Of a DNA stretch of 64,000 nucleotides, positions 4,435 to 24,413 are shown piece by piece; the first letter of the stretch is position 1, and each line of letters opens with the position of its first letter. The notes below the pieces were generated by a model. It saw nothing but the letters and a program-made list of their open reading frames with translations. It did not search any database and was not told where the DNA came from. Location of the stretch: the NCBI RefSeq assembly GCF_003018255.1, contig NZ_CP027440.1; one strand, 5' to 3'. Source of the DNA: Escherichia coli. Its GTDB lineage: Bacteria; Pseudomonadota; Gammaproteobacteria; Enterobacterales; Enterobacteriaceae. A program made the translations under genes and the position numbers.

Positions 4435-4839
4435 TTATTTCGCCAACACCGCTGCTGCCGCTTTCGCGACCTGCGCATCCTGTGCTCCGGTTAAACCAGA
4501 AACGCCCACGGCACCAATAATTTGCCCATCAACAACAACCGGTACGCCGCCTTCCAGCGACGTCAGTAACGGCGCAGTCACGAACGCGGTACGTCCGTTG
4601 TTCACCATCTCTTCATAGCCCTTAGTTTCACGACGCCCCAGCGCGGCGGTACGCGCTTTCTCCTGGGAGATGTAAGCCGCAATCGGCGCGCAATCGTCCA
4701 TGCGACTTAACGCCAGCAGATGACCGCCGTCATCGGCAACAGCAATGGAAACAGACCAGTTGTTTTTCTGCGCCTCTTCCTGACCTGCGGCAATAATTGC
4801 ACTCGCCATTTGCTGGCTAAGAATGACTTTAGTTTTCAT
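4435..4839 (-). CDS. glcG: GlcG (heme-binding GlcG/HbpS family), 134 aa
   Basis: Track ORF trimmed to internal ATG (MKTKVILSQQ...) giving the K-12 length; glc operon context. Confidence 0.88.
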   Translation of the reverse strand: MKTKVILSQQMASAIIAAGQEEAQKNNWSVSIAVADDGGHLLALSRMDDCAPIAAYISQEKARTAALGRRETKGYEEMVNNGRTAFVTAPLLTSLEGGVPVVVDGQIIGAVGVSGLTGAQDAQVAKAAAAVLAK

Positions 4840-4843
4840 TTTG

Positions 4844-6067
4844 TTATTCCTTTTCAAGGGCTTGTTCTACAATTTCAATCCAGTGACGCACAGAGGTACG
4901 ACCGGCGCTCGCCAGATGCGTCTGGCAACCAATGTTGGCGGTGACGATCATTTCCGGTTTGCCGCTTTCCAGCGCATTCATTTTGTTATCCCGCAGCTGG
5001 CGTGCCAGATCGGGATGCGTTAACGCATATGTTCCCGCTGAACCGCAGCACAGATGGCTGTCGGGAACGTCCGTTAAGGTAAATCCAAGACGAAATAACA
5101 CTTTTTCCACTTCGCCGTTCAGCTTTTGCGCATGTTGTAGGGTACACGGGCAGTGGAAGGCCAGTTTTTTATCGCCGCGAATTGCCAGTTTTTCCAGTGG
5201 TTCCTTGCGCAGAAGTTCGACTAAATCGACCGCCAGCTCACTGACCTGACGCGCTTTATCGGCATACAACGCATCGTTTTTCAGCATCTGCCCATACTCT
5301 TTAACGAACGCGCCGCAACCGCTGGCGGTTTGCAAAATTGCCTCGGCACCTGCTTCAATCGCGGGCCACCAGGCATCAATATTATTGCGCGCCCGCGCTA
5401 ACCCTTTCTCTTGCGCATTAAGATGATAGTCCACCGCGCCACAACAGCCTGCTTCGTTAGCTGGCATGACGCTGATCCCCAGACGATCCAGCACTCGCGC
5501 AGTTGCCGCGTTGGTGTTGGGCGAAAGCGTAGGCTGGGCGCAGCCTTCCAGCATTAAAACCCGACGCTTATGGCGCAGCGGTGGACGCGGTTTAGCTTTC
5601 ACGGTTTCAGCAGGCAGTTTTGCTCTGACCTGTTCCGGTAAAAACGGTCGCAGCACCAGCCCTACCTGCGTCAGCGCACGGAAGACCGCCGGACGCGGCA
5701 CTACCTGGCGCAATCCTTCGCGCAGCATTCGCTCCGGCAGTGGGCGTTTCACTTTCTGCTCGACAATATCACGCCCGATATCCAGCAAATTGTGATAACG
5801 CACACCAGAAGGACAGGTGGTTTCACAATTGCGGCAAGTGAGACAGCGATCGAGATGCTCCTGTGTTTTAAGCGTGACTTCGTTGCCTTCCAGTACCTGT
5901 TTAATCAGATAGATGCGCCCGCGCGGCCCGTCCAGTTCATCGCCCAGAAGCTGATAGGTTGGGCAGGTTGCGGTACAAAATCCGCAGTGAACACAGGCGC
6001 GCAGGATGCTGTCGGCTTCCAGCGCGCGCGCGTTCTGCCGCATCTCTTCTGTTAATCGGGTTTGCAT
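4844..6067 (-). CDS. glcF: Glycolate oxidase iron-sulfur subunit, 407 aa
   Basis: Track ORF has 63-codon N-terminal extension; internal start MQTRLTEEMRQNARAL gives 407 aa; CxxCxxCxxxCP ferredoxin motifs present. Confidence 0.9.
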   Translation of the reverse strand: MQTRLTEEMRQNARALEADSILRACVHCGFCTATCPTYQLLGDELDGPRGRIYLIKQVLEGNEVTLKTQEHLDRCLTCRNCETTCPSGVRYHNLLDIGRDIVEQKVKRPLPERMLREGLRQVVPRPAVFRALTQVGLVLRPFLPEQVRAKLPAETVKAKPRPPLRHKRRVLMLEGCAQPTLSPNTNAATARVLDRLGISVMPANEAGCCGAVDYHLNAQEKGLARARNNIDAWWPAIEAGAEAILQTASGCGAFVKEYGQMLKNDALYADKARQVSELAVDLVELLRKEPLEKLAIRGDKKLAFHCPCTLQHAQKLNGEVEKVLFRLGFTLTDVPDSHLCCGSAGTYALTHPDLARQLRDNKMNALESGKPEMIVTANIGCQTHLASAGRTSVRHWIEIVEQALEKE

Positions 6068-6077
6068 AGCCTGCTCC

Positions 6078-7130
6078 TCAAAGTTCCGCGTACATGCGAC
6101 CGGGGTTAAACACGCCGCAAGGGTCGAGCTGCTGTTTAAGCTGCTGGTGATAGCGGAATAAAGGAGCCGGTAGCGGGGCAAAGCCACCATCTCCGGCACT
6201 AAAGCGGGTCGCATGACCGCCAGCGTTGCGGGCGATGCGATGGATTTGATTGTCATCGGCTGTCGATTTCAGCCAGCGTAACGCCCCGCCCCAGTCGATC
6301 AGTTGCTCGCCGGGTAAATCCATCATCGGCGCATCGCTGGGTAATGAAATGCGCCATAAGGTACCTGGTAACGAGAAGAACGGCAGTTGTTGTTCACGCA
6401 ATTGCTGCCAGAACTGACCCGCAACCTCTTCGCCCCCCAGCAGTTCACGCGCTGCTTTTACCGATCCTTCGCCGCCCTCAAGGCGGATCCACAACGCATT
6501 GTCGAAGTAACATAAGCCACTAATGGGTAATGGCTGAAGTTGCCACTGGGCGATTTCATTCATGGCTTCTTGCAGGCTGATTTCCCGACGCAGACTCAGG
6601 GTGGCGCGTGGTCGCGGTAACACTTTCATCGAGATTTCAGTGAGCACACCCAGACAACCGTAGCTTCCGGCCATTAACCGTGAGAGATCGTATCCGGCAA
6701 CGTTTTTCATCACTTCGCCACCAAAACGCAGATGTTTTCCAGTGCCGGTAATGATGCGCGTGCCGAGGACAAAATCGCGGACCGAACCGCTCCACGGGCG
6801 ACGCGGCCCCGCCAGCCCGCAGGCGACCATCCCGCCCCAGGTGGCTTCTTCACCATAATGCGGCGGCTCGCAGGGGAGCATTTGCCCGGCGCTCTCCAGC
6901 GCCGCTTCAATGGCTACCAGCGGCGTTCCGGCACGCGCGGTTATCACCAGCTCGGTCGGGTCGTAATTAACAATGCCTCGATGACAACGCACATCCAGCG
7001 TTTGCCCGGTGACAGGGCGGCCTAAAAAGGCTTTGCTATTGCTTCCCTGAATCACCAGCGGCGTTTTATCGCTAATCGCCTGATTCACCTGCTCCAGCAG
7101 CGCCTGACTGTAATCACACTCGCGTAGCAT
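6078..7130 (-). CDS. glcE: Glycolate oxidase FAD-binding subunit, 350 aa
   Basis: ORF length and context between glcF and glcD. Confidence 0.9.
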   Translation of the reverse strand: MLRECDYSQALLEQVNQAISDKTPLVIQGSNSKAFLGRPVTGQTLDVRCHRGIVNYDPTELVITARAGTPLVAIEAALESAGQMLPCEPPHYGEEATWGGMVACGLAGPRRPWSGSVRDFVLGTRIITGTGKHLRFGGEVMKNVAGYDLSRLMAGSYGCLGVLTEISMKVLPRPRATLSLRREISLQEAMNEIAQWQLQPLPISGLCYFDNALWIRLEGGEGSVKAARELLGGEEVAGQFWQQLREQQLPFFSLPGTLWRISLPSDAPMMDLPGEQLIDWGGALRWLKSTADDNQIHRIARNAGGHATRFSAGDGGFAPLPAPLFRYHQQLKQQLDPCGVFNPGRMYAEL

Positions 7131-8629
7131 CAGAAACGCTCCAGTTCAGGGAAAGGTAAATGACCGTGATGCACATGCATGGCACCAAATTCAGCACAGC
7201 GGTGTAGCGTGGGAATGTTTTTCCCAGGGTTCAGCAAACCATCGGGATCAAACGCCGCCTTGACCGCATGGAAGGTCGTGATTTCATCGCTGTTGAACTG
7301 GGCGCACATTTGATTGATTTTTTCGCGCCCGATGCCATGTTCCCCACTGATGCTGCCGCCAACTTCAACGCAGAGTTCGAGGATCTTCCCGCCCAGCTCT
7401 TCCGCGCGGGCAAATTCACCGGGTTCGTTGGCATCGAAAAGGATTAACGGGTGCATGTTGCCGTCTCCGGCATGAAAGACGTTGGCAACGCGTAAATCAT
7501 ATTGCTGCGATAAACGGGCAATGCCTTCCAGTACGCCAGGCAGGGCGCGGCGCGGGATGGTGCCATCCATGCAGTAGTAATCCGGGGAGATACGTCCTAC
7601 CGCCGGGAACGCATTTTTGCGACCGGCCCAGAAACGTACGCGCTCTGCTTCGTCCTGTGCCAGACGGACGTCAGTCGCGCCCGCTTTCAACAAGATGTCG
7701 TTAACCCGCTCGCAGTCTTCCTGTACGTCAGACTCCACGCCGTCCAGCTCGCATAACAAAATCGCTTCGGCGTCGACGGGATAACCGGCATGAATAAAAT
7801 CTTCCGCTGCGCGGATCGACAGGTTATCCATCATCTCCAGCCCGCCGGGGATAATGCCATTGGCGATGATGTCACCAACCGCAAGTCCGGCTTTTTCTAC
7901 CGAGTCAAAGCTGGCTAACAGAACCCGCGCCACGGGCGGCTTCGGCAGCAGTTTTACCGTCACTTCGGTGGTCACGCCGAGCATACCTTCCGATCCGGTG
8001 AACAGCGCCAGCAGGTCAAAACCAGGCGAATCCAGCGCATCCGATCCCAGCGTCAGCGCCTCGCCGTCCAGCGTTTGCACTTCAATTTTCAGCAGGTTAT
8101 GTACGGTCAGACCATATTTCAGGCAGTGAACGCCACCGGCATTTTCCGCCACATTGCCGCCAATTGAACAGGCGATTTGTGAGGAAGGATCCGGCGCGTA
8201 ATAGAGATTATGCGGCGCAACGGCCTGGGAGATCGCCAGATTACGCACGCCCGGCTGCACGCGCGCGCGGCGACCAACGGGGTTAATGTCGAGGATCTCT
8301 TTAAAGCGCGCCATCACCAACAACACACCTTTTTCCAGTGGCAGCGCGCCACCAGAAAGCCCGGTGCCTGCACCACGGGTCACCACCGGTACACGCAGGC
8401 GGTGGCAGACAGCCAGAATCGCCGTCACCTGTTCCATCTGCTTTGGCAAAACAACCAGTAATGGACGCGTGCGATACGCGCTCAACCCGTCACACTCGTA
8501 AGGAATGATCTCCTCATCGGTATGCAGGATCTCAAGTCCAGGGACATGCTCACGCAGTGCCATCAGTACCGATGTGCGGTCGACATCGGGTAAAGCGCCA
8601 TCAAGACGCTCTTCGTACAAGATGCTCAT
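7130..8629 (-). CDS. glcD: Glycolate oxidase subunit GlcD (FAD-linked oxidase), 499 aa
   Basis: ORF length 499 aa; first gene of glcDEFGBA; 1-nt overlap with glcE. Confidence 0.93.
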   Translation of the reverse strand: MSILYEERLDGALPDVDRTSVLMALREHVPGLEILHTDEEIIPYECDGLSAYRTRPLLVVLPKQMEQVTAILAVCHRLRVPVVTRGAGTGLSGGALPLEKGVLLVMARFKEILDINPVGRRARVQPGVRNLAISQAVAPHNLYYAPDPSSQIACSIGGNVAENAGGVHCLKYGLTVHNLLKIEVQTLDGEALTLGSDALDSPGFDLLALFTGSEGMLGVTTEVTVKLLPKPPVARVLLASFDSVEKAGLAVGDIIANGIIPGGLEMMDNLSIRAAEDFIHAGYPVDAEAILLCELDGVESDVQEDCERVNDILLKAGATDVRLAQDEAERVRFWAGRKNAFPAVGRISPDYYCMDGTIPRRALPGVLEGIARLSQQYDLRVANVFHAGDGNMHPLILFDANEPGEFARAEELGGKILELCVEVGGSISGEHGIGREKINQMCAQFNSDEITTFHAVKAAFDPDGLLNPGKNIPTLHRCAEFGAMHVHHGHLPFPELERF

Positions 8630-8879
8630 GAATAGGCTTCGCTTTGTTGTGTTGTGTGGCAGCTGATTTTTGCGCGCTGCTTCTGTGAACAGTTATTAAG
8701 CGGGCTTTTCGTTTTCGTCTATCTCTTTAGCTACCGGTCAGACCATTTTTTTTCCAGCTCTGTGACCTTGCCTTGGTTAACTTAATGTTAAATTGATGTA
8801 ACATAATCACTTGCGTGATGTGCGTGTTTTGCGAGTTAAGAACAGAAAAATTGGTCCTACCTGTGCACGAGGTCCGGGA
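8630..8879. promoter_or_regulatory. Divergent glcC / glcDEFGBA control region
   Basis: 250-bp non-coding interval between divergently oriented glcD and glcC starts; regulatory role known from K-12 biology, no motifs verified here. Confidence 0.5.
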
Positions 8880-9644
8880 ATGAAAGATGAACGTCGCCCT
8901 ATTTGCGAAGTGGTTGCAGAGAGTATCGAACGGTTAATTATCGACGGCGTGTTGAAGGTCGGTCAGCCGCTTCCCTCGGAACGTCGACTGTGTGAAAAGC
9001 TCGGCTTCTCACGCTCCGCACTGCGTGAAGGGCTGACCGTGCTGCGCGGGCGCGGGATTATTGAAACGGCGCAGGGTCGCGATTCTCGTGTCGCACGGCT
9101 TAATCGGGTGCAGGACGCCAGCCCGCTGATCCATCTGTTCAGTACGCAGCCGCGAACGCTGTACGATCTGCTCGACGTTCGCGCATTACTGGAGGGCGAA
9201 TCGGCAAGGCTGGCGGCAACGCTGGGAACCCAGGCTGATTTTGTTGTGATAACCCGCTGTTATGAAAAAATGCTCGCCGCCAGTGAGAACAACAAAGAGA
9301 TTTCGCTGATCGAACATGCGCAGTTGGATCACGCTTTCCATCTCGCCATTTGTCAGGCTTCTCACAATCAGGTGCTGGTGTTTACGCTGCAATCATTGAC
9401 CGATCTGATGTTTAATTCAGTGTTTGCCAGCGTAAATAATCTCTACCATCGACCACAGCAAAAAAAGCAGATCGATCGCCAGCATGCGCGGATCTACAAC
9501 GCGGTGTTGCAGCGGCTGCCGCACGTCGCCCAGCGCGCAGCACGTGATCATGTGCGGACCGTGAAAAAGAATCTCCACGATATCGAGCTGGAAGGCCACC
9601 ATTTGATTCGCTCGGCGGTGCCGCTGGAGATGAAGCAGGGGTGA
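8880..9644 (+). CDS. glcC: GntR/FadR-family glc operon activator, 254 aa
   Basis: Track ORF trimmed to ATG at 8880 (MKDERRPICEV...) giving 254 aa. Confidence 0.92.
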   Translation: MKDERRPICEVVAESIERLIIDGVLKVGQPLPSERRLCEKLGFSRSALREGLTVLRGRGIIETAQGRDSRVARLNRVQDASPLIHLFSTQPRTLYDLLDVRALLEGESARLAATLGTQADFVVITRCYEKMLAASENNKEISLIEHAQLDHAFHLAICQASHNQVLVFTLQSLTDLMFNSVFASVNNLYHRPQQKKQIDRQHARIYNAVLQRLPHVAQRAARDHVRTVKKNLHDIELEGHHLIRSAVPLEMKQG

Positions 9645-9650
9645 CTGCCA

Positions 9651-10793
9651 TCAAATCTGCTTTTCATACAATCGGTAACGCTTGTACGGCTCCGCCCCAA
9701 TGCGTTCCAGCATGTTATTCATGCCTGTATTGGTTTCGAGGATCCATGACATCTCCAGCGCATCGATCTTCCGACGGGCAAACGGATCGCGTAAGGCTTC
9801 AATCAATAACAGCGCAATTACCGGGCCGATGCGGCTGAACTGATACTCGTCCCGCACGCCCATCAGCGGCACTCGCGCAGTTCGCACACCGCTGACTTTC
9901 AAACGCCACAGCAATTTTGCCCAGCCGAAGGGAAAGAGCGATCCGTTCAGATCGGCAATCGCCTCGTTGATGTTCGGCAAGCCAACAATAAACGCGCAGG
10001 GTGCAGAATCAATCTCAGCGATGTAGATCATATCGTCCGGCACCAGATATTTAAGTTGATCGCCCATGGTCGCGAATTCATGTTCGGTAAACGGCACAAA
10101 TCCCCAGTTGTGCTGCCAGCCAGAATTGAAAATCTCACGCAGGATCTGCATCTCTTCGGCAAACCGCTGGCGATTGATGCAGCGAATGGTCACTTTTTTG
10201 CGCACCTGATCCATCAGTTTTTTTAGCGCCGGAGAGAACGTGAGATCGGTTCGCTGCATCCACCACGCCAGTAAATCAATGCCTTTGTGATAACCCAGTT
10301 GTTCAATATGCGCGGCATACCACGGTTTGCCGTGTGGCATCATCGCACAGGGCGGAGTGTCAAAACCTTCAATCAGTAATCCGCTTTCCTGATTGATATT
10401 CAGGCTGAAAGGCCCGCTGATCTTATTTGCACCTTGTGACTTTAACCACGCTTCCGCTGCGCCAAACAACGCGGCAAAAACCTGCGGATCATCAATGGCA
10501 TCAATCATTCCGTAATGACCGGTATCTTCACCGTAACGCTCACGGTGCAAGGTATCGATTTGCGCGGTAATACGCCCAACTATCTGCCCCGCTTTTTTTG
10601 CCACCCACGCCTGCCAGATGATATGGTCCGTCCCCGGATTCTTCGCAGACAAATGCTCGCTGCGTTCAATGAATAAAGGGGGTATCCAGTTTGGATCATC
10701 GGGATAAAGTGATGACGGAAAAGCGATAAATGCCTTAAGGTCATTTTTATTAATTACTTTTTCAATTTTAATCATCAGCAGATCGCATTCCAT
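9651..10793 (-). CDS. yghO: Large GNAT-like acyltransferase (YghO), 380 aa; candidate N-acyltransferase of the adjacent lipid module
   Basis: Full-length ORF convergent with glcC and divergent from the acyl-AMP ligase operon; position matches yghO in K-12; GNAT-like assignment from sequence recognition only. Confidence 0.7.
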   Translation of the reverse strand: MECDLLMIKIEKVINKNDLKAFIAFPSSLYPDDPNWIPPLFIERSEHLSAKNPGTDHIIWQAWVAKKAGQIVGRITAQIDTLHRERYGEDTGHYGMIDAIDDPQVFAALFGAAEAWLKSQGANKISGPFSLNINQESGLLIEGFDTPPCAMMPHGKPWYAAHIEQLGYHKGIDLLAWWMQRTDLTFSPALKKLMDQVRKKVTIRCINRQRFAEEMQILREIFNSGWQHNWGFVPFTEHEFATMGDQLKYLVPDDMIYIAEIDSAPCAFIVGLPNINEAIADLNGSLFPFGWAKLLWRLKVSGVRTARVPLMGVRDEYQFSRIGPVIALLLIEALRDPFARRKIDALEMSWILETNTGMNNMLERIGAEPYKRYRLYEKQI

Positions 10794-11164
10794 ATCTCTG
10801 TGGATAACAAATAATTAACGGTGAAAAACAGGTTGCAACAGCAACGAACGGCATCTTAATAATCAACCCAATGAATACAAACAAAGAATAAATAGTATTT
10901 ATTAATGATTACGATAAGGTCAGAGACTACACAGAAGCGCCACAATGCCTCTTGTCGATTTAAGGCGACCGGACAAGGCTCCTTCTTAATATATTCATAA
11001 ATTAAATATCATTCACAATAAAAACAAAAAAACTCAAACATATTATTTAAATCAATGTTCATTTTCACACCGATGAAAATACTATCTCATTTATCTTTTA
11101 TGCCTATATAATCCACCGCATTATTGTCATTTTATTTTGGATATCCAATTTTTTCGTGGTGTAT

Positions 11165-12889
11165 ATGTCTAATAAAATCTTTACGCATTCCCTACCTATG
11201 CGCTATGCCGATTTTCCAACGCTGGTTGATGCTTTGGACTACGCCGCTCTGAGTAGCGCCGGAATGAATTTTTATGACAGACGTTGCCAACTTGAAGATC
11301 AACTGGAATATCAGACGTTAAAAGCGCGTTCCGAAGCTGGTGCGAAAAGGTTGTTATCGCTGAACCTGAAAAAAGGCGATCGCGTGGCGCTGATTGCCGA
11401 AACGAGTAGCGGGTTTGTAGAGGCTTTTTTTGCCTGCCAGTATGCCGGCTTAGTCGCCGTCCCGTTGGCGATTCCAATGGGCGTCGGTCAGCGGGATTCC
11501 TGGAGCGCCAAACTGCAGGGTTTACTGGCAAGTTGCCAGCCCGCAGCCATTATCACTGGTGATGAGTGGTTGCCACTGGTCAATGCCGCGACGCATAACA
11601 ACAACCCCGAATTACATGTTTTAAGCCACGCCTGGTTTAAGGCATTACCGGAAGCCGATGTTGCGCTCCAGCGTCCAGTTCCAAACGATATCGCCTACCT
11701 CCAGTACACCTCCGGCAGCACCCGTTTTCCCCGTGGCGTCATTATCACCCATCACGAAGTGATGGCTAATCTACGTGCTATAAGCCACGATGGCATTAAA
11801 TTACGCCCTGGCGACCGCTGCGTCTCCTGGCTGCCTTTCTACCATGATATGGGACTGGTCGGCTTTCTCCTGACCCCCGTCGCCACGCAGCTTTCAGTAG
11901 ATTATTTGCGCACTCAGGATTTTGCCATGCGTCCTCTGCAATGGCTTAAATTGATCAGTAAAAATCGCGGCACCGTTTCCGTTGCACCGCCGTTTGGCTA
12001 TGAATTGTGCCAGCGCCGCGTGAATGAAAAAGATCTCGCTGAACTGGATCTTTCCTGCTGGCGCGTCGCTGGTATTGGAGCAGAACCGATCTCCGCAGAA
12101 CAACTCCATCAATTCGCTGAATGTTTTCGTCAGGTTAACTTTGACGATAAAACTTTCATGCCGTGCTACGGACTGGCAGAAAATGCGCTGGCTGTCAGCT
12201 TCTCTGATGAAGCCTGCGGGGTTGTGGTTAACGAAGTGGATCGCGACATCCTCGAATACCAGGGTAAAGCCGTCGCGCCGGGTGCTGAAACACGCGCCGT
12301 ATCGACTTTCGTCAACTGCGGTAAAGCGTTGCCGGAACATGGCATTGAAATCCGCAATGAAGCAGATATACCTGTCGCGGAACGTGTGGTAGGCCATATT
12401 TGCATCTCCGGCCCCAGCCTGATGAGCGGGTACTTTGGCGACCAGGTTTCGCAAGACGAGATTGCCGCGACGGGCTGGTTAGACACCGGCGACCTTGGTT
12501 ATCTGCTGGACGGTTATCTGTATGTCACCGGACGCATTAAAGATCTGATTATTATTCGTGGCCGTAATATCTGGCCGCAGGATATTGAATACATTGCGGA
12601 ACAGGAACCGGAAATTCATTCTGGCGATGCGATTGCTTTTGTTACCGCCCAGGAAAAAATCATTTTGCAGATCCAGTGTCGGATCAGCGACGAAGAACGT
12701 CGCGGGCAGCTTATCCACGCGCTGGCAGCTCGGATCCAAAGCGAATTTGGCGTTACCGCGGATATCGATCTGTTGCCGCCCCACAGTATTCCCCGAACAT
12801 CCTCCGGCAAGCCTGCCCGTGCGGAAGCGAAAAAACGTTATCAGAAGGCTTATGCTGCCAGTCTTCATGTGCAGGAATCCCTGGCATGA
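11165..12889 (+). CDS. Adenylate-forming fatty acyl-AMP ligase / acyl-ACP synthetase-like enzyme, about 574 aa
   Basis: AMP-binding signature (YTSGSTRFPRGV), size typical of acyl-AMP ligases; start uncertain (track GTG at 11156, first ATG at 11165); stop overlaps next gene start (ATGA). Confidence 0.8.
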   Translation: MSNKIFTHSLPMRYADFPTLVDALDYAALSSAGMNFYDRRCQLEDQLEYQTLKARSEAGAKRLLSLNLKKGDRVALIAETSSGFVEAFFACQYAGLVAVPLAIPMGVGQRDSWSAKLQGLLASCQPAAIITGDEWLPLVNAATHNNNPELHVLSHAWFKALPEADVALQRPVPNDIAYLQYTSGSTRFPRGVIITHHEVMANLRAISHDGIKLRPGDRCVSWLPFYHDMGLVGFLLTPVATQLSVDYLRTQDFAMRPLQWLKLISKNRGTVSVAPPFGYELCQRRVNEKDLAELDLSCWRVAGIGAEPISAEQLHQFAECFRQVNFDDKTFMPCYGLAENALAVSFSDEACGVVVNEVDRDILEYQGKAVAPGAETRAVSTFVNCGKALPEHGIEIRNEADIPVAERVVGHICISGPSLMSGYFGDQVSQDEIAATGWLDTGDLGYLLDGYLYVTGRIKDLIIIRGRNIWPQDIEYIAEQEPEIHSGDAIAFVTAQEKIILQIQCRISDEERRGQLIHALAARIQSEFGVTADIDLLPPHSIPRTSSGKPARAEAKKRYQKAYAASLHVQESLA

Positions 12890-13800
12890 ATCAAACTGTC
12901 GCGGTGACGGGCGCTACCGGGTTTATCGGTAAATATATTATTGATAACCTGCTCGCCCGCGGCTTTCACGTTCGCGCATTAACGCGTACTGCCCGCGCTC
13001 ACGTCAATGATAATCTCATCTGGGTGCGCGGTTCGCTGGAAGATACACATTCGCTTAGCGAACTGGTTGCCGGAGCCAGCGCGGTGGTCCATTGCGCCGG
13101 ACAAGTGCGCGGACACAAAGAAGAGATTTTTACCCGCTGTAACGTTGACGGCAGCCTGCGCCTGATGCAAGCGGCAAAAGAGAGCGGCTTTTGCCAACGT
13201 TTTCTGTTTATCTCTTCGCTGGCGGCGCGCCATCCCGAACTCTCCTGGTACGCAAATTCCAAACACGTCGCCGAACAACGACTGATCGCAATGGCTGACG
13301 AAATTACGCTGGGCATTTTTCGCCCGACAGCCGTGTATGGTCCCGGCGATAAAGAGTTAAAACCGCTGTTTGACTGGATGCTGCGCGGCCTGCTGCCACG
13401 ACTTGGTGCGCCAGATACACAACTCTCTTTCCTGCACGTCACCGATTTTGCGCAAGCAGTGGGTCAGTGGTTAAACGCCGAAACTGTACAGACGCAAACC
13501 TATGAATTATGCGATGGCGTCGCTGGCGGCTATGACTGGCAACGCGTACGACAGCTTGCCGCCGAAGCCCGTTGTGGTTCTGTGCGGATGGTTGGCATTC
13601 CTCTGCCGCTACTCACCTGCCTTGCGGATATCAGTACTGCGTTGAGTCGCCTGGCAGGTAAAGAACCTATGCTGACCCGCTCGAAAATTCGTGAATTAAC
13701 CCACGCCGACTGGTCGGCAAATAATAACCGTATTTCTGAAGATATTAATTGGTTTCCCGGGATTAGCCTGGAACACGCATTACGCAACGGGCTATTTTGA
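12886..13800 (+). CDS. NAD(P)-dependent epimerase/dehydratase-family reductase, 304 aa
   Basis: N-terminal Rossmann motif VTGATGFIGKYI; start at ATG 12886 overlapping upstream stop (ATGA); track ORF from 12676 is an out-of-operon extension. Confidence 0.8.
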   Translation: MNQTVAVTGATGFIGKYIIDNLLARGFHVRALTRTARAHVNDNLIWVRGSLEDTHSLSELVAGASAVVHCAGQVRGHKEEIFTRCNVDGSLRLMQAAKESGFCQRFLFISSLAARHPELSWYANSKHVAEQRLIAMADEITLGIFRPTAVYGPGDKELKPLFDWMLRGLLPRLGAPDTQLSFLHVTDFAQAVGQWLNAETVQTQTYELCDGVAGGYDWQRVRQLAAEARCGSVRMVGIPLPLLTCLADISTALSRLAGKEPMLTRSKIRELTHADWSANNNRISEDINWFPGISLEHALRNGLF

Positions 13801-13831
13801 TTGTCTTGTTTAAAGGTGTGTTAACGTTTCT

Positions 13832-14080
13832 ATGGTAAATCGTGAAATAGTAATGGATTACATCCTTTCCTGTTTACAGGATTTGGTCGAAAACGGTGTG
13901 GAAATTAAGCCCGACAGCGATCTCGTCAACGATCTTGGCCTGGAGTCGATCAAAGTGATGGATCTCTTAATGATGCTGGAAGACAGATTCGATATTTCCA
14001 TTCCTATTAATATTCTGCTGGATGTCAAAACCCCTGCGCAATTAATGGAAACTCTACTTCCATGGCTGGAGAATAAATAA
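13832..14080 (+). CDS. Dedicated acyl carrier protein, 82 aa
   Basis: Small acidic protein with phosphopantetheine-attachment-like motif DLGLESIKVMDL; stop overlaps next start (TAATG). Confidence 0.75.
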   Translation: MVNREIVMDYILSCLQDLVENGVEIKPDSDLVNDLGLESIKVMDLLMMLEDRFDISIPINILLDVKTPAQLMETLLPWLENK

Positions 14081-15252
14081 TGGGGCTATACGATAAATAT
14101 GCGCGCCTTGCTGGCGAGCGCCTGCAATTTAGTGACAACGGGTTAACACCATTTGGCACCTGTATTGATGAAGTGTATTCCGCCACCGAAGGCCGGATCG
14201 GCAATAAAAAAGTGATTCTGGCCGGGACCAATAATTATCTCGGTTTAACCTTTAATCATGATGCTATCCGCGAAGGTCAGGCAGCGTTAGCGGCCCAAGG
14301 CACTGGCACCACCGGTTCTCGTATGGCAAACGGCAGTTATGCGCCGCATCTGGCGTTAGAGAAAGAGATTGCCGAGTTTTTCAATCGCCCTACCGCTATC
14401 GTTTTTTCAACCGGTTATACCGCTAATTTAGGTGTCATCAGCGCACTTGCCGACCATAACGCCGTGGTGTTACTGGATGCCGACAGCCACGCCAGTATTT
14501 ATGACGCCTGTTCTCTCGGCGGCGCAGAGATTATTCGTTTCCGCCATAATGACGTCAACGATCTGGAACGGCGCATGGTCCGCCTCGGTGAACGGGCGAA
14601 AGAGGCGATTATTATCGTTGAAGGCATCTACAGTATGCTCGGTGACGTTGCGCCGCTGGCAGAAATTGTTGATATCAAACGTCGTCTCGGTGGTTATTTG
14701 ATTGTCGATGAAGCACATTCGTTTGGCGTGTTAGGCGCAACAGGCCGCGGACTGGTTGAAGCCGTTGGCGTTGAAGACGACGTGGATATTATCGTCGGCA
14801 CCTTCAGTAAAAGTTTGGCTTCCATTGGTGGTTTTGCCGTGGGTTCAGAAGCGATGGAAGTGCTGCGCTACGGCAGCCGCCCGTATATTTTTACCGCCTC
14901 TCCTTCTCCGTCCTGCATTGCGACCGTGCGCTCGTCGTTAAGAACCATTTCCACACAACCAGAGCTGCGGCAAAAACTGATGGATAACGCCAACAATCTG
15001 TATGACGGTCTGCAAAAACTGGGTTATGAGTTAAGTTCACATATTAGCCCGGTAGTGCCAGTAATAATCGGTTCGAAAGAGGAAGGTTTACGCATCTGGC
15101 GCGAGCTTATTTCGCTGGGCGTTTATGTGAATCTTATCCTGCCACCTGCCGCGCCTGCAGGCATCACGCTGCTGCGCTGTAGCGTAAACGCTGCCCACAG
15201 TCGTGAGCAAATCGATGCCATCATTCAGGCATTTGCTACTCTGAAGCAGTAA
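14080..15252 (+). CDS. PLP-dependent alpha-oxoamine synthase, serine-palmitoyltransferase-like, 390 aa
   Basis: Class-II aminotransferase fold with PLP-lysine motif GTFSKSLASIGG; distinct from BioF and Kbl; translationally coupled to the ACP gene. Confidence 0.8.
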   Translation: MGLYDKYARLAGERLQFSDNGLTPFGTCIDEVYSATEGRIGNKKVILAGTNNYLGLTFNHDAIREGQAALAAQGTGTTGSRMANGSYAPHLALEKEIAEFFNRPTAIVFSTGYTANLGVISALADHNAVVLLDADSHASIYDACSLGGAEIIRFRHNDVNDLERRMVRLGERAKEAIIIVEGIYSMLGDVAPLAEIVDIKRRLGGYLIVDEAHSFGVLGATGRGLVEAVGVEDDVDIIVGTFSKSLASIGGFAVGSEAMEVLRYGSRPYIFTASPSPSCIATVRSSLRTISTQPELRQKLMDNANNLYDGLQKLGYELSSHISPVVPVIIGSKEEGLRIWRELISLGVYVNLILPPAAPAGITLLRCSVNAAHSREQIDAIIQAFATLKQ

Positions 15253-15257
15253 TGTGA

Positions 15258-15292
15258 GCCCGCTGTGGTGTTGCGCCACGGCGGGTTTAATG
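15258..15292. terminator. Convergent hairpin (cccgctgtgg...ccacggcggg) with T-rich tail between the synthase gene and the LptG-like gene
   Basis: About 10-bp stem read from sequence, followed by tttaatg. Confidence 0.4.
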
Positions 15293-16366
15293 TTGTCTGT
15301 CATACCAATACACCAGGCTCAACGCCACCAGCACAAACGCTACCGGTAAACCGAGCGCGGTAACAGGTGCGCTCAACGCAAATAACAATCCCAGATTGAC
15401 CATGATTTGATAGCTGATCCAGGTGAGTAAGCCAACGATGACGCCTACAGCGAGACGGCTACCCATCCCAGGCGAACGCGGGGCGCTAAAGGTAAACGGC
15501 ACAGCCAGCAAAATCATCGCCAGGGTCAAGATGGGTTGTCCCAGTTTTTCCCACAGTGCAAGGCGGTATTCGCTGCTGGGTTGCCCGGTTTCCTGCAAAT
15601 AATGGATGTAATGATTAAGTTGACGGACAGAAAAAGTATTTCCCGGCATCGATAACTCTTCAAGATTCATACTGGTGAAGGCCGATTGCCAGGGAAGATT
15701 ATCAGATGTTTCCTGCGTTTCTTTGCCATTCAGCCATTTTTTATGATTCACACCATGCAGGATCCACGTTTTGTCGTCTTCAATGGTAGCACTGCGCGCA
15801 TAAATGTAGGATTCGAGCGAGAGATCATCGCGGTAATGAAATATCTCCACGTCCACCGGCTGGCCCTGCTCGTTCAGCGATTTCACCGTCACAAATTCAT
15901 TACCACGCCTGGCCCACAGCATATTGCCGGTAATGTCATCGTCCTCCCCCAACGCAGTGGCAGTCGATTTGATTTGCAGCGCCTGTTGCTGCAATGGCGA
16001 CGCCACCCACTCATCTATCGCGCCTAATGAAACAGTCCACAATATCCCGGCAACCAGCGCCACCAGTGCAATACGGAAGATAGAAAACCCCGTGCTGCGA
16101 ATGGCGGTAAGCTCACTGTTTTTCGATAACTGCCCCAGGCCGACAATCCCTCCCAATAAGGCGATAAACGGCGAAAGTTCGACCAGTGTGCGCGGTAAGG
16201 TCATCAGCACCACCAGCACCGCCTGAGTCCAGCGATAACCACCCGGGCTGACATCATCCAGTTCGTTAATCAGGTTGAAGGTGGTAAAAAGCGGCAGCAA
16301 TAGCCCTGCGGCGGCGGCAAAACCGAGAAAGAGATGACGGATTAAATAGCGACTGAAAACATTCAT
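15287..16366 (-). CDS. LptG/LptF-family (YjgP/YjgQ) permease paralog, about 359 aa
   Basis: N-terminus MNVFSRYLIRHLF typical of LptF/G permeases; trimmed to ATG at 16366 overlapping upstream stop (ATGA). Confidence 0.75.
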   Translation of the reverse strand: MNVFSRYLIRHLFLGFAAAAGLLLPLFTTFNLINELDDVSPGGYRWTQAVLVVLMTLPRTLVELSPFIALLGGIVGLGQLSKNSELTAIRSTGFSIFRIALVALVAGILWTVSLGAIDEWVASPLQQQALQIKSTATALGEDDDITGNMLWARRGNEFVTVKSLNEQGQPVDVEIFHYRDDLSLESYIYARSATIEDDKTWILHGVNHKKWLNGKETQETSDNLPWQSAFTSMNLEELSMPGNTFSVRQLNHYIHYLQETGQPSSEYRLALWEKLGQPILTLAMILLAVPFTFSAPRSPGMGSRLAVGVIVGLLTWISYQIMVNLGLLFALSAPVTALGLPVAFVLVALSLVYWYDRQH

Positions 16367-17433
16367 CGGGAAAATTTCTGCAGCAAAGAGAAGTCGCGTG
16401 CGACCAACATCAGCAGGCCCATTAGCATGAGTCCGGGTACTAACCACAAACCAGGAATGAGGGGAATCGCGCCGTTAGCCACCAGCGTACGGCAGACGTC
16501 GCCGCCATAAAAAATGGCAACAAACAGCAACGTCAGTGGCAATAACGTTGAAAATCGCCCTTGCCGCGGTTTTACCCGACTTAATGAAATGGCCAGCAGC
16601 GCCATCAACAATGCTGTCAGGCCACGGCTTTGTCGCCATTGCAGTTCGGCATGATCGGCAGGAAAGGCGGAGCGCGCCAGCTCCGTGACCGATTTTGCTT
16701 TGCGTTTGACGTTAGGGCTTTGATCCAGCGGATTCAGATGTAATTGCAGATTACGGTAGATCTGTTCGTTGTCGTCACGCCCCTGATGATCGAGAAGATA
16801 GGCGGTCCCGTTATGCAACATAACGGTCGGTTTCTCAGGTGATGGGTCAACCACATCAACCGAACGGGCGCGGAAAATGCGGGTTCGATTAGCAGTAGAA
16901 GTATAAATCAGCGCATCAGTCAGGCGATTATTATCCTGATCAACCGTCTGCGAAAGGATCATTCGTCCGTTATCGTTAGTGTTAAATTTCTTTGCCCGCA
17001 ACTGGCGAACATCCAGCTCCGACTGTGACTGTTGCTCCAGTTGATAAATCTGCGCATAAGCCCACGGACGACCATACATCGACAGAAGGGTGACAAAAAT
17101 ACTTAGCGGTATCGCCAGATAAAGAACGGCTTTGTACAAGCGTCCCGGACTGCCCCCCGCCGCAGAGATAGCGGTAATTTCCGAGTCGGTATACATCTGC
17201 CCTAGCGTCACGCCAACTGACACATACAGTCCAACAGGTAACAACATCTCCAGTGCAATCAGCACTTTGTAGAAAACGATATCCAGCACAACATCAAGAG
17301 CTAATGTCCCATTTGCCGCTTCGGTCAGATAACGCTGTGCGGAGTAGCTGGCGAAAATAAAGATCAGAAAACCGACGATAATCAGCACCAGACGGCGCGT
17401 ACCACGCATGATGTAGTGTTCAACCAGCTTCAT
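16363..17433 (-). CDS. LptF/LptG-family (YjgP/YjgQ) permease paralog, 356 aa
   Basis: Polytopic membrane protein with LptF/G-like N-terminus; operon partner of 15287-16366. Confidence 0.75.
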   Translation of the reverse strand: MKLVEHYIMRGTRRLVLIIVGFLIFIFASYSAQRYLTEAANGTLALDVVLDIVFYKVLIALEMLLPVGLYVSVGVTLGQMYTDSEITAISAAGGSPGRLYKAVLYLAIPLSIFVTLLSMYGRPWAYAQIYQLEQQSQSELDVRQLRAKKFNTNDNGRMILSQTVDQDNNRLTDALIYTSTANRTRIFRARSVDVVDPSPEKPTVMLHNGTAYLLDHQGRDDNEQIYRNLQLHLNPLDQSPNVKRKAKSVTELARSAFPADHAELQWRQSRGLTALLMALLAISLSRVKPRQGRFSTLLPLTLLFVAIFYGGDVCRTLVANGAIPLIPGLWLVPGLMLMGLLMLVARDFSLLQKFSR

Positions 17434-17462
17434 CTCACTAACGCCCTCAATCCTTTGAATTT

Positions 17463-18026
17463 TTATTCATTGATCAGCTTCTGCGCCAGCGCAATGACAT
17501 GATCTACCTCTTCCGGCGTCAGGCTGCCGTCCTTTGCCCACTGAATTTGCCCGGTTTTATTCAGCACCAGAATGGTTGAACTCTGCTCCTGCAAGTGCCA
17601 GGCAACGCGTCCCTGTCCATTGCCGTCAATAACGAATTGCGCCCATGGATAGCGGCGTTTATTTTTTTCGATTTTGCCAACGACAAAATAGCCGGTACCA
17701 AAGATGGCATCATCAGTGTTCACAATGGTGGTGGGCTGAAAACGATCCTGCGGAAAGTTTGCCGCTTCAACTGCTTTAATTAACAGTGAGTTCTTTTTCT
17801 TCGCCGACTTACGCCCGGCGATATACTGAATAATGCGAACTTTTCCCGCCAATTGGGTGCTGTTCCACTTTTGGTAGTGAATTTCGTCGTCGCTATTCCG
17901 AAGCAGCTCGCCGCCTTCCTGGATATAAACGGGGGTAACCGTTTTGCCAGTGACGAAATTGTGTGCCTGCACACCCGGGGCTAAGAGCATGATAATCAGC
18001 GCAATAATCAAACGAGATGACATCAT
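17463..18026 (-). CDS. Secreted/periplasmic protein with cleavable signal peptide, possibly YtfJ-like, 187 aa
   Basis: N-terminal signal peptide (...LLAPGVQA/HN); family assignment tentative. Confidence 0.55.
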   Translation of the reverse strand: MMSSRLIIALIIMLLAPGVQAHNFVTGKTVTPVYIQEGGELLRNSDDEIHYQKWNSTQLAGKVRIIQYIAGRKSAKKKNSLLIKAVEAANFPQDRFQPTTIVNTDDAIFGTGYFVVGKIEKNKRRYPWAQFVIDGNGQGRVAWHLQEQSSTILVLNKTGQIQWAKDGSLTPEEVDHVIALAQKLINE

Positions 18027-18034
18027 TGCTCCGG

Positions 18035-18859
18035 TTATAGCGGAAAACGCGAAATCAGCAGTTCTAAGCGCTGGCGAATATCGCTATCCAGCGCCATCGG
18101 TGCATCATACGACTGGCGGTTTTCCATATCATCCGCCACCATGTCGTCGTGTTTATCCCCCATCAGGCCATTAATGGCGGCGAGGAAGCGGGAAATCTGT
18201 AACGCTTCTTTATTTTCAGGATCAAGCGATCTTAGGGTGTCGTAATAAGAAACCTGCTGGCTGATGATTTTTCGCACATCATGAAATTCCCTGCCGGTTA
18301 GTCGCGGTTTGGCAATTATCTCTTTCAGGGTATGCATTTGCTTTTGCCGATAGGCAATAAAACCGCTTACGCTTTCTAACTGGCTATGGCGTAATGAATA
18401 GTTCACCAACGACCAGACCGGAGAGCTTAAATAAACCCGTAACAGGTTGCCGTAATACGACACAATATTTTTCTTACCGTTACGAAAGCCGTCCTGAAAA
18501 CGCCCCAAAAAAACGGTCGTTTTGCCGAATAAAAATCCGGCCTGATGCTTCTTTAAATACAGCCGTTGCGCAAAACGCAGGTGCTTGTAGCGCGCTCGCA
18601 TGTATTTAAATTGTTTGCGCTCATCAGCAGTCAGCTCATCGCCTTTGGCCTGTTTGCATATTAAACGCAGTAACTCCTGGCGATTGACGCCATTGAGCCA
18701 GAATTGCAGGCATAACGCGTAATTATCATGGATGATTTCGGTGGTACAACTTAGTGCGATAGTCGGCGGCAAACTGACCTGTGCATCAACGACATCATCT
18801 TCTTCAATCGCAACAAATAGACGCTCGCTCGCCTCTAGCGGGAAATATTTTCTCATCAT
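18035..18859 (-). CDS. Hypothetical protein, 274 aa
   Basis: Full-length ORF in operon; start overlaps the stop of yghQ by 1 nt; no domain recognised. Confidence 0.6.
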   Translation of the reverse strand: MMRKYFPLEASERLFVAIEEDDVVDAQVSLPPTIALSCTTEIIHDNYALCLQFWLNGVNRQELLRLICKQAKGDELTADERKQFKYMRARYKHLRFAQRLYLKKHQAGFLFGKTTVFLGRFQDGFRNGKKNIVSYYGNLLRVYLSSPVWSLVNYSLRHSQLESVSGFIAYRQKQMHTLKEIIAKPRLTGREFHDVRKIISQQVSYYDTLRSLDPENKEALQISRFLAAINGLMGDKHDDMVADDMENRQSYDAPMALDSDIRQRLELLISRFPL

Positions 18860-20208
18860 CAGGATTTCTCTCCGGCTGCGTTATAAAGCAAGGAATGGCG
18901 CTGAAAAAATGCCTTTAAGGTCGGAATTAGCGAAAGCACCACATCCAGACATTGACCACCGAAATAAGCAAACGCTGCTCCCAGCACGCCAAACAGATGA
19001 CAGAACATGAACAGCAATACGATGTAGCCGATTGAGGCGATGGTTTGCGCCACGAGAAAAGCGCGCTGTTTTCCCGCCATCAATAGCAATGACTCCTGAG
19101 GGAAGCCCAGCATCGAGATCACAATTGCGCCCAGCATCACCTGAATCAGGTCATACGCTTCGAGATACTTAACGCCAAACACCAGCGAAATGAGCGGCTT
19201 GCCGACAATCAACACCGCGAGCGCCACCAGAATACCGATTCCGCCCGCCAGTAAACCTGACTTCACGCCTAACAACCACGGTCTGGTGGTACGCGGATCT
19301 AAACGCATCACCTCTGGGTAAAAACTTTTGCCCAGTAAACCCGCTGGCGTTCCGGCGGCGTCGAAGAATGTCATGGCGATTTTAAATAACCCGGCGGCAG
19401 CGGGTCCTAACACGATCCCCACCAACACTGTGCTGCACGAATTACGCGCCGACCAGATGGAATGGGCAATGTTGGTTGACCAGACAAAACTCCACGCGCC
19501 TTTGATGTGTCGGGCAGACTCAAACAGATTCAATTTGAACGCGTTATGGATATTTCTGCGGCGTAATTCACGTGCGGCAAACCACCAGTACATGGTGCCG
19601 CCAACAAGATTCGAGGCGTACCAGGCAATAACAAAACCCGCAAAACCAAAGTCAAAATACCAGGCAACGACGCTCCCCGCTGCGCGCAGAAAAGGTTTCG
19701 TCGCTTGCTGTACAGCAATTAGATCGAAGCGATCTACCGCACGCAGAATGCCGGTCGGCGTGGAGGAAGCCATTGAAGGAATGAGCGTGCAATACAGCGC
19801 TGCCAGCCAAAAGCTTTGGTCATCCAGACCTAATGAATGGGAAAGAAAAGGGAGTAAGGCAATGCCGCCGACAATCGCCACCGCGCCGCTGACGATATCC
19901 AGCGAGAAGGAAAATGAGACGACATTGCGGAATTGCTGCGGATTATTGTTGGTTAATGCTGGTGTTCCGTACTGAACCACCAGCTGCCATGTCTGAAACT
20001 TAATAAAATCGCTGATCGACTTGGCGTACGATTGTACAATCACCAGTACGCCAAACATGGCGGGCGTCATCCCTTTACCGGCACACGAGAGCGCCAACAG
20101 ACCCAGCAAAGCGCTCACGACATTACTGGAGCCTAACCAGGCGCTATTGCGAATAATGGTGCGAAACGCGCCATCTGCAAACCAATGTTTGATGTTAAAA
20201 CCCGCCAA
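18859..20208 (-). CDS. yghQ: MOP-superfamily flippase/exporter, full-length 449 aa
   Basis: Polytopic membrane ORF at the K-12 yghQ position; K-12 YghQ recalled as 355 aa, suggesting a 3'-truncated K-12 copy. Confidence 0.75.
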   Translation of the reverse strand: MAGFNIKHWFADGAFRTIIRNSAWLGSSNVVSALLGLLALSCAGKGMTPAMFGVLVIVQSYAKSISDFIKFQTWQLVVQYGTPALTNNNPQQFRNVVSFSFSLDIVSGAVAIVGGIALLPFLSHSLGLDDQSFWLAALYCTLIPSMASSTPTGILRAVDRFDLIAVQQATKPFLRAAGSVVAWYFDFGFAGFVIAWYASNLVGGTMYWWFAARELRRRNIHNAFKLNLFESARHIKGAWSFVWSTNIAHSIWSARNSCSTVLVGIVLGPAAAGLFKIAMTFFDAAGTPAGLLGKSFYPEVMRLDPRTTRPWLLGVKSGLLAGGIGILVALAVLIVGKPLISLVFGVKYLEAYDLIQVMLGAIVISMLGFPQESLLLMAGKQRAFLVAQTIASIGYIVLLFMFCHLFGVLGAAFAYFGGQCLDVVLSLIPTLKAFFQRHSLLYNAAGEKS

Positions 20209-20253
20209 TTCAGCCTGACCTTATCGTTGATAGTAAAAAGTATCCCGCCAGCC

Positions 20254-21012
20254 TTAAGTTAAACTTCGGCGGTCAGAAACGATGGCAACCAGAGAAACCG
20301 CCTTCTGTGCCTGTTCCAGCACTTCGCTGTAGGGCGCTCTGGAATCAATCTCAAGAATTTTTGTGCCGTTATAGCCAATCGTCGACATGACGCCGATTTT
20401 GTCCTGCAGCTCGGCATAGTCATGGTCAGGCTTGCGGGAGATGGCAGTATCAATATCAATCCCCAAACGAATGATTAATTCAGGACGGTATTGCGCCATT
20501 TGTTGGTATAAACGCCGTTCGCGCTGCGCCAGAAACATGCTGATTTTCCCGGTCGCACGTTCGACGCCGATCCCCGGTCCGTCATAATAAAAGCCCGAAA
20601 TTTCAGCCTGCGGGAAGCGATCGCTGACCACCAGAACGCCACTTTGCGCCAGTCGCTGAACCTTGCGTAGATTCGCCATTCTTCGCAGCGAGAAGCAGTA
20701 CATAATCACCGCCGCCCATAGCGCTGGAGATTTGGTTTTCATGCTTTGGGTTTTCGAGGATTTGGCCGCCAGTCGCCGTTCGAGCCAGACGCCAACCAAC
20801 GGCAATCGTTTGATTTTGTCGCCGTCTTCGCCCGAGAGCAGCCCCAGATAGCGCCGCTCGGTTTGCCAGTGTTGTTGCAGCGATTTCACCAGGTCGGTGG
20901 TCAGTGTGGATTTACCGGTGCCATCACACCCGACCACCGCAATCAGCCCCGGAATGTAGTTGGGCTGCGGCGCGGTTGTACTATTAACAGTTTGTGTTTG
21001 TAGTGCGTCCAT
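20254..21012 (-). CDS. yghR: P-loop kinase, thymidylate/deoxynucleoside-kinase-like, 252 aa
   Basis: Walker A GCDGTGKST and downstream SDRFPQ motif; length matches K-12 YghR. Confidence 0.85.
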   Translation of the reverse strand: MDALQTQTVNSTTAPQPNYIPGLIAVVGCDGTGKSTLTTDLVKSLQQHWQTERRYLGLLSGEDGDKIKRLPLVGVWLERRLAAKSSKTQSMKTKSPALWAAVIMYCFSLRRMANLRKVQRLAQSGVLVVSDRFPQAEISGFYYDGPGIGVERATGKISMFLAQRERRLYQQMAQYRPELIIRLGIDIDTAISRKPDHDYAELQDKIGVMSTIGYNGTKILEIDSRAPYSEVLEQAQKAVSLVAIVSDRRSLT

Positions 21013-21043
21013 TCGTTAAATCATCCCCTATCCATTTTGGTGA

Positions 21044-21757
21044 TCAGGAAAGCGCGGCGTGAATTGCGCGTAGTGACGCTTGCAGAATTTCATCGGCGGG
21101 TTGCCGACCATCCAGTTCAAGGATCTTTGCACCATTAAATGTCAGTTGCGGCGTAACGGCGATTTTTTCCTGTAACGCCGCCAGTTGGTGGTCAGGTTTA
21201 CGCGCAAACGCGGTTTGTTCATCAATGCCAAGACGAATCAACAATACGGGCAAATAAGACGCCATCCATTGGTACAGCTTCAGCTCGCGCTGCCTTAACA
21301 TTTTTATCCAACCGTTACCGCCCGTGGTTTTTGCCAATTGCGGGCCATCAAAGCGAAAACCCGGCACTTCAACCTGCGGGTAGCGGTCGGTGATGAGCAG
21401 ATAGCCTTGCTGGCTTTTACACAACATTTTGCGAAACTTGTACGCCCGCCAGCAGGAAAGCAGATAGATAACCAGCGCAGTAATATTGCCAGGTGGTGTG
21501 GAGGGCTTTTCGTGCACATGTGCCGCTTTACTTCGCAGATAACGCCCAAAAGGTGCGCCAATAACAGGGAGCTGTGAAATCCATTCGCCAATTCGCCCGG
21601 ACGATTGCCCGAGATAAATGTGTTCTGTTGGCATTGTTGCTGCCAGTTCATTTACCAGGCTTGCCGTGAGGGTCGATTTACCTGAACCATCACATCCTAC
21701 AATGGCAATAACACGCACTGGCGTGGAATTAATTATTGACATATTACGTTGATTCAC
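21044..21757 (-). CDS. yghS: P-loop kinase paralog, 237 aa
   Basis: Walker A GCDGSGKST and TDRYPQ motif; paralog of yghR; length matches K-12. Confidence 0.85.
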   Translation of the reverse strand: MNQRNMSIINSTPVRVIAIVGCDGSGKSTLTASLVNELAATMPTEHIYLGQSSGRIGEWISQLPVIGAPFGRYLRSKAAHVHEKPSTPPGNITALVIYLLSCWRAYKFRKMLCKSQQGYLLITDRYPQVEVPGFRFDGPQLAKTTGGNGWIKMLRQRELKLYQWMASYLPVLLIRLGIDEQTAFARKPDHQLAALQEKIAVTPQLTFNGAKILELDGRQPADEILQASLRAIHAALS

Positions 21758-21931
21758 GAAAAACCCGGCAGCAAATAATGTATTGAATATTACGTGGTCC
21801 GTGCTCAGAATATCCGTTCAACCTTATTGTGACAATGGTTAATTGTGACATTGACCTGAATTACGCTTTCATCAAAAACATATTAACCAAATAAATATTT
21901 TGGATGGATATTTAAATTTAAGGATATATTC

Positions 21932-24172: not shown

Positions 24173-24413
24173 ATATTAGATTACGCCATTTTGAATTTAC
24201 GAACGGAGGCATTATCAGTGACTTTCACGGCGTGGGCAAAGTGAAATATCATTTTTTAACGATAAAAAGCGTGTTATTTCTTGTGTATCAGACAATAAGC
24301 CTTCATTCAAAACCTTTAAAAATAATCAAAACACAGGTATTCCACTTGTTAATATATTCATATATGAAATGAATAAATATTGAAATATATAAATATTGAA
24401 TATTTTGATTAAT

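Follow-up and report, generated by a model that had tools for sequence, protein, structure and literature searches.

An AT-rich divergent promoter region between yghO and the aasR operon of the Escherichia coli sphingolipid cluster

The DNA analysed here, called the window throughout, is a stretch of 64,000 nucleotides from an Escherichia coli contig (NZ_CP027440.1, assembly GCF_003018255.1). We examined the intergenic gap that separates yghO from a divergently oriented four-gene operon headed by a ligase gene. The gap and its neighbours, up to the end of the operon, are as follows.

9651..10793, minus strand: yghO, predicted acyl-CoA N-acyltransferase of dihydroceramide synthesis ('aca', ECD_02850; annotation and PMC9386255)
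10794..11164, no strand: divergent intergenic control region, 371 bp, GC 0.310 (boundaries, composition and annotation)
11165..12889, plus strand: aasR, fatty acyl-AMP ligase / specialised acyl-ACP synthetase, heading the operon (AMP-binding domain; PMC9386255)
12886-13800, plus strand: epi, epimerase-family reductase (Pfam Epimerase)
13832-14080, plus strand: acpR, small ACP (Pfam PP-binding)
14080-15252, plus strand: spt, serine palmitoyltransferase (Pfam Aminotran_1_2, aminotransferase fold)
15255..15289, plus strand: hairpin between the convergent spt and lptG-like genes (16-bp stem with 9 G-C pairs)

In the aasR-epi-acpR-spt operon, whose last three genes occupy 12886..15252 on the plus strand, the ends of neighbouring genes overlap or lie 31 nt apart. 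The hairpin at 15255-15289 is held in a spacer of 34 bp and 71% GC between spt and the lptG-like gene; it is likely a bidirectional terminator and marks the end of the four-gene operon. Since these genes form a single transcription unit ending at the hairpin, the four have no upstream control region other than the gap.

The lipid locus is the published E. coli dihydroceramide (sphingolipid) cluster. Padilla-Gomez et al. 2022 (PMC9386255) described the operon genes in BL21(DE3) as ECD_02851-02854 and yghO (ECD_02850) as a predicted N-acyltransferase; aasR, epi, acpR, spt and aca/yghO together make up the dihydroceramide synthesis set, and the proteins of the E. coli BL21 cluster work biochemically (PMC9386255). 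The window carries the same five clustered genes as the proteobacterial spt/sphingolipid clusters. YghO gave no Pfam or NCBIfam match, hence its role rests on the published assignment (PMC9386255). Work on these clusters has dealt with the enzymes, whereas the subject here is the promoter region. A literature search by BL21 locus tags and by the names AasR and AcpR returned enzymology only, and nothing on how this promoter region is built or regulated in E. coli.

The E. coli sphingolipid paper covers the first five genes only (PMC9386255). The rest of the cluster, 15287-22624, encodes paralogues of the LptF/LptG LPS exporter permeases, a YtfJ-family protein, a 274-aa protein without a family, the Wzx-like YghQ and three P-loop 'dTMP kinase'-like proteins (yghR/S/T). 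This gene set suggests that the head group of the lipid is modified and the lipid exported.

The edges of the gap are exact: on the minus strand the yghO ATG stands at 10793, and on the plus strand the ligase is annotated from an ATG at 11165. In RefSeq, the ligase begins in some strains at the first ATG, 11165 (574 aa), and in others at 11198, 34 nt downstream (562 aa, MRYADF...); the DNA is identical across both starts, which makes this an inconsistency of annotation and not a polymorphism. In all other genera examined, the YghO orthologues start at a Met equivalent to E. coli M7 (10775), with a TAAGG Shine-Dalgarno sequence upstream, and the E. coli annotation is six codons longer (MECDLL, region 10775-10793). 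The upstream E. coli ATG at 10793 is plausible. A 5-bp indel polymorphism lies directly upstream of this annotated ATG.

A sequence-only reading of the locus had described about 370 bp of strongly AT-rich, non-coding DNA between the divergent genes, and this description holds. GC was 0.310 in the 371-bp gap versus 0.512 for the window, and 371-bp windows of equally low GC made up 0.65% of the total. After mapping all annotated genes, we obtained 24 intergenic regions of 50 bp or more in the window, 9 of them divergent, with medians of 165 bp and GC 0.434. The gap ranked as the longest and the second lowest in GC among the 24, and as both the longest and the lowest in GC among the 9. Comparable AT-rich gaps were found between pitB and gss (GC 0.296) and between yghS and yghT (GC 0.316). 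No intergenic region of the window is more AT-rich than the pitB-gss gap (24173-24463, 291 bp), so that such a composition is not limited to the sphingolipid cluster. Locally, the gap is 100% identical to that of E. coli strain 2017.09.02CC.

The same reading had singled out A/T tracts as a feature of the gap. These did not stand out from composition: 9 tracts of at least 4 bases were counted, versus 7.0 ± 2.3 in mononucleotide and 8.4 ± 2.0 in dinucleotide shuffles. AA/TT phasing at 10-11 bp was looked for in the gap and was absent, and TpA steps showed no excess there, being slightly below the composition-based expectation. Similarly, a search of the gap for direct and inverted repeats gave short AT-rich chance pairs only. 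Along its length the gap is a mosaic of two very AT-rich blocks, a GC-normal island and a conserved aasR-side block, with the following composition (GC 0.231 over the 182 bp of 10983-11164).

10794-10853: yghO-adjacent segment, GC 0.40
10854-10913, no strand: second AT block, on the yghO side, GC 0.217
10914-10982, no strand: GC-normal island, GC 0.52, with an imperfect hairpin and a 31-aa ORF
10983-11065, no strand: extreme AT block upstream of the candidate aasR promoter, GC 0.145, fast-evolving
11066-11164: aasR-adjacent segment, GC 0.30

Conservation within Escherichia was followed in ten aligned alleles, including those of the window, of Nissle 1917 (which we take to be phylogroup B2) and of SCPM-O-B-8794, a divergent strain with 95% identity in AasR. 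Identities to the divergent allele were distributed very unevenly.

yghO coding DNA: 92%
yghO-proximal 37 bp: 73%
yghO-side AT block, 10831-10913: 63%
GC island: 47%
aasR-side AT block, 10986-11065: 75%
aasR-proximal 99 bp, 11066-11164: 95%
aasR coding DNA: 90%
11073..11164, plus strand: near-invariant aasR-proximal block, 92 bp with 1 variable site in 9 E. coli lineages

Outside 11073-11164, the gap showed 15-32 variable sites per 100 bp in the same 9 lineages; the sole variable site inside is a T-to-G at 11139 that is specific to the window. The pattern expected from purifying selection on the gene-proximal parts was thus seen on the aasR side (95%), the yghO side being less conserved (73%), and most gap DNA outside the aasR-proximal block evolves faster than the flanking genes. 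The near-invariance of 11073-11164 indicates that the functional core of the gap is the 92 bp preceding aasR. By contrast the GC island, the least conserved part of the gap, is probably a neutral spacer.

A position-weight scan against the consensus located a candidate aasR promoter within this conserved block.

11084..11112, plus strand: candidate sigma-70 promoter, with -35-like ATCTCA (3/6), 17-bp spacer and -10 TATAAT at 11107-11112

Both hexamers were unchanged in 10 of 10 alleles. The predicted transcription start lies near 11119, giving a leader of about 46 nt, and we infer from the sequence that 11073-11164 would comprise the aasR core promoter and 5′ leader. With a perfect -10 and a poor -35, the promoter should be weak unless an activator helps; this combination is typical of activator-dependent promoters. 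Promoter-like matches are common in such DNA (roughly 20 sites per kb with a score of at least 8 in the gap versus 3.5 per kb window-wide), which limits the weight of the TATAAT assignment, itself from a consensus scan. A stricter scan retained one site, on the strand opposite to aasR, versus 3.1 expected, and nothing on the aasR strand. On the yghO side several weak promoter candidates were present, none of them standing out.

Compared with ordinary divergent sigma-70 regions, exemplified in the window by glcD/glcC and exbB/metC, the gap likewise separates divergent units, exceeds coding DNA in AT content and is conserved in its gene-proximal part. Unlike them, it has about twice the typical length (371 versus a median of 165 bp), lies 12 GC points under the median gap and for the most part outpaces the flanking genes in evolution. 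As a sequence feature it is nevertheless an unremarkable one, a long AT-rich divergent promoter region of familiar type.

The composition had led the sequence-only reading to propose silencing by H-NS and conditional expression of the lipid locus. An H-NS target should be well above average in AT content over 100-200 bp or more, and the gap is so relative to the window (GC 0.310 over 371 bp versus 0.512). This composition is of the kind that H-NS prefers, H-NS occupancy being inversely correlated with GC in ETEC ChIP-seq (PMC4287617). The high-affinity H-NS consensus motif TCGATAAATT was absent from the gap with 0-1 mismatch, the best match having 2 mismatches (10994-11003), and it was not enriched in the window (79 versus 67.8 ± 8.7 expected). 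This motif is not obligatory for H-NS binding. A literature search gave no direct H-NS binding or hns-mutant data for the gap in strains carrying the locus. Published observations that bear on the idea indirectly concern a sibling divergent gap of the same cluster.

21758..21931, no strand: yghS/yghT gap, GC 0.316, half as long

This second gap is present in 4679 of 5426 genomes. K-12 keeps this far end of the cluster, and the yghS promoter lies within the yghS/yghT gap. According to PMC5797941, both Kahramanoglou 2011 and Oshima 2006, which are ChIP studies of K-12, list yghS as associated with H-NS, and SlyA overexpression in K-12 raised yghS 3.1-fold (PMC5797941).

The lack of product in standard BL21(DE3) culture fits the proposed conditional or silent expression (PMC9386255). 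In BL21(DE3), which has the native cluster, no 3-oxo-sphinganine was found with empty vectors in complex medium at 30 C (PMC9386255). Moreover, overexpression of only its own SPT (SPT_Ec) gave the lipid profile of the empty vector (PMC9386255), indicating that chromosomal aasR and acpR were not effectively expressed. The authors suggest that in BL21 the products of the chromosomal genes epi (ECD_02852, in the operon) and yghO (ECD_02850) may act on 3-oxo-sphinganine when it is overproduced (PMC9386255), a possible conversion that would imply some basal expression and argues against complete silence.

Several AT-rich promoters of E. coli, among them those of hlyE, the bgl operon and cryptic fimbrial operons, are repressed by H-NS and counter-silenced by SlyA or LeuO. 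The gap resembles these in being long and strongly AT-rich with a predicted weak core promoter, and its cluster is similarly silent or very low in laboratory culture (PMC9386255). Unlike them, it carries no good H-NS motif, and a search of the gap with the SlyA consensus gave no match. It also differs from a typical AT-rich foreign island in that its adjacent genes have normal GC; the coding regions not being AT-rich as in classic silenced islands, an H-NS filament would be limited to a few hundred bp. Silencing of the gap by H-NS is plausible.

The explanation that we prefer, with roughly even confidence, is that the promoter of aasR is weak and conserved and sits in AT-rich divergent DNA, and that H-NS, which probably coats this DNA, keeps the ceramide genes low in culture. 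The gap would act as a shared divergent promoter and leader region of yghO and aasR-epi-acpR-spt, and transcription of the operon would most likely start within the near-invariant 92-bp block by aasR. The AT-rich DNA upstream (10983-11065, with 14.5% GC, and 10854-10913) would probably bind H-NS, 10983-11065 being the most likely nucleation site. From there H-NS could spread across both promoters and hold the locus low in ordinary culture, and expression would require a counter-silencer or an activator under some condition. We infer in the same way that H-NS occupies the gap and that silencing causes the low expression. An apparently intact sphingolipid cluster is carried by three quarters of complete E. 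coli genomes and has been lost by K-12. If the gap keeps this locus off, it offers an obvious handle for finding the inducing condition, that is, when natural E. coli make sphingolipids.

It is possible, though in our judgement rather unlikely, that the gap is an ordinary promoter region whose low activity comes from a weak core promoter and one or more specific regulators, not from H-NS. Such regulators might be of the ArcA, FadR or response-regulator type, or another activator, and AT-richness would simply be normal for long promoter regions. The equally AT-rich core-gene gap pitB-gss (0.296), the perfect -10 with its poor -35 and the lack of an H-NS motif all agree with this. So does the comparison with other genera: orthologous gaps, of 270-940 bp, lie 6-30 GC points under their flanking genes (10-30 in Enterobacterales), and this lower GC was seen in every genus, Pseudomonas included. 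To our knowledge, Pseudomonas has no H-NS. As for particular regulators, we scored 18 regulator and sigma-factor consensus sequences in the gap against shuffles, and three gave leads.

10805..10819, minus strand: candidate ArcA-like direct repeat CGTTAattattTGTTA, lying 12-26 nt before the yghO ATG, 13/15 matching, invariant in 9 E. coli lineages, equalled or beaten in 2% of shuffles
10827-10843: FadR-like match, 12/17, equalled or beaten in 4% of shuffles
within the gap: NarL-like match, 5% of shuffles

About one match at p<=0.05 is expected by chance from 18 motifs, so the ArcA-, FadR- and NarL-like matches are not significant and are leads, not findings. The FadR-like site is moreover deleted in the divergent Escherichia allele, and the CRP tables for ETEC H10407 list no target at the locus. 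An ordinary weak promoter would also still be compatible with H-NS, as the two mechanisms can coexist and the sibling yghS/yghT gap is H-NS-associated in the K-12 studies listed in PMC5797941.

A more ambitious version of our preferred explanation would make 11073-11164 and the AT-rich DNA upstream a dedicated, H-NS-silenced switch for ceramide synthesis, opened by a specific activator or counter-silencer on a host or envelope signal. ArcA might relay oxygen or redox state, for example, or FadR the supply of fatty acids, or a protein resembling SlyA might be involved. We consider this doubtful. Were it true, ceramide synthesis would be turned on by such a switch in most natural E. coli. Ceramides are not generally regarded as lipids of E. 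coli, which is not known to produce sphingolipids in culture.

We find it very improbable that the gap owes its length to a hidden functional element, be it a gene for a small protein, an sRNA or a leader RNA with a regulatory role in cis. Such an element would account for the longest gap in the window (371 bp), for the 31-aa ATG ORF (10905-11000) that coincides with the GC-normal island, and for the 92 bp preceding the aasR ATG being more conserved than coding DNA. Against an RNA, an Rfam scan of 10000-12000 gave nothing, even at E<=1, and RNA folding of the two leaders (the putative aasR leader and that of yghO) and of either strand of the GC island did no better than shuffles (z from -1.24 to +0.25). 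Against a small protein, the 31-aa ORF is interrupted by a stop in Nissle, has no counterpart in the divergent allele and carries many replacements, and the GC island is the part of the gap conserved least. The small ORFs of the gap comprise some of 29-38 aa within it and one of 42 aa running into aasR. They were rejected as genes: a family search with three of them gave no match, and in other lineages of E. coli the three that were compared are either interrupted or full of substitutions. The gap is non-coding.

Comparison with other genera gave no sign of such an element either. By blastn, the E. coli gap had no significant similarity to the gaps of other genera, with only short matches of E 0.2 or worse, and a de novo 9-mer search in 13 orthologous gaps was swamped by the AT-rich background and did no better than shuffles. 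When the 160 bp preceding aasR in the different genera were aligned with MAFFT, several of them shared a short TGATTTTGAATCT-like stretch 25-30 nt before the ATG.

The distribution of the locus bears on its origin, which the sequence-only reading had taken to be horizontal acquisition. Of 5426 complete E. coli genomes, 4136 (76%) have one copy of the gap, always at the same site and with 91.6-100% identity, and Nissle 1917 carries it together with yghO and the ligase gene. In the K-12-type genomes without it, an IS5-associated deletion runs from the 5′ end of yghO into yghQ, so that its absence from K-12 is secondary. In another strain, loss at the locus was mediated by IS1. Among species representatives, the best 80 AasR matches include close relatives in Hafnia, Pluralibacter, Pseudocitrobacter, Serratia, Mangrovibacter and Citrobacter youngae, and further ones in Tatumella, Erwinia, Cedecea, Rosenbergiella, Shimwellia and some Pseudomonas/Azomonas; representatives of Salmonella, Klebsiella, E. 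albertii and E. fergusonii were absent among these best 80. In 20 of 20 loci examined in other genera, yghO was divergent from aasR-epi-acpR-spt, and the divergent layout with a long gap is shared by Pseudomonas/Azomonas and by 12 enterobacterial genera besides Escherichia.

The cluster thus shares its patchy phylogenetic distribution with xenogeneic islands, without their deviant gene GC (0.509 versus 0.525 for all window genes, with GC3 of 0.45-0.60) or variable location. The patchy spread in Enterobacterales could reflect an old transfer or many losses. Normal gene GC, a single site and a conserved layout do not indicate recent horizontal acquisition, and with the loss from K-12 being secondary, there is little to sustain the earlier claim. 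That the AT-rich DNA is a mere scar of recent acquisition, an island junction or mobile-element remnant instead of a functional control region, may be set aside as scarcely credible: the patchiness across Enterobacterales and the remodelling of the locus by IS5 and IS1 in some strains speak for it, but the gap lies inside the cluster and not at its edge, occupies one site in most complete genomes, contains no repeats or transposase remnants that we could find and is flanked by genes of normal GC and GC3, and the arrangement conserved across genera has already largely refuted it.

Some further observations concern particular alleles and another part of the window. In SCPM-O-B-8794 (locus 4505-13704), GlcC is 99% identical to that of the window, whereas the adjacent cluster proteins are 90-98% and the gap 74% identical, so that the allele of the cluster is much older than that of the gene beside it. 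The T-to-G change at 11139 makes a perfect 12-bp palindrome, TTGGATATCCAA (11137-11148), in the aasR leader of the window, where all nine other alleles have TTTGATATCCAA. Finally, an insertion of 1826 bp (58492-60317, GC 0.346) lies between qseC and mdaB and is absent from the otherwise near-identical strain 2017.09.02CC. Its minus-strand ORFs encode Hcp (T6SS tube, PF05638, 59589-60068), a DUF2645 membrane protein (58537-58869) and a 245-aa protein with no family match (58876-59613), and from this gene content it looks like an orphan Hcp-effector-immunity islet.
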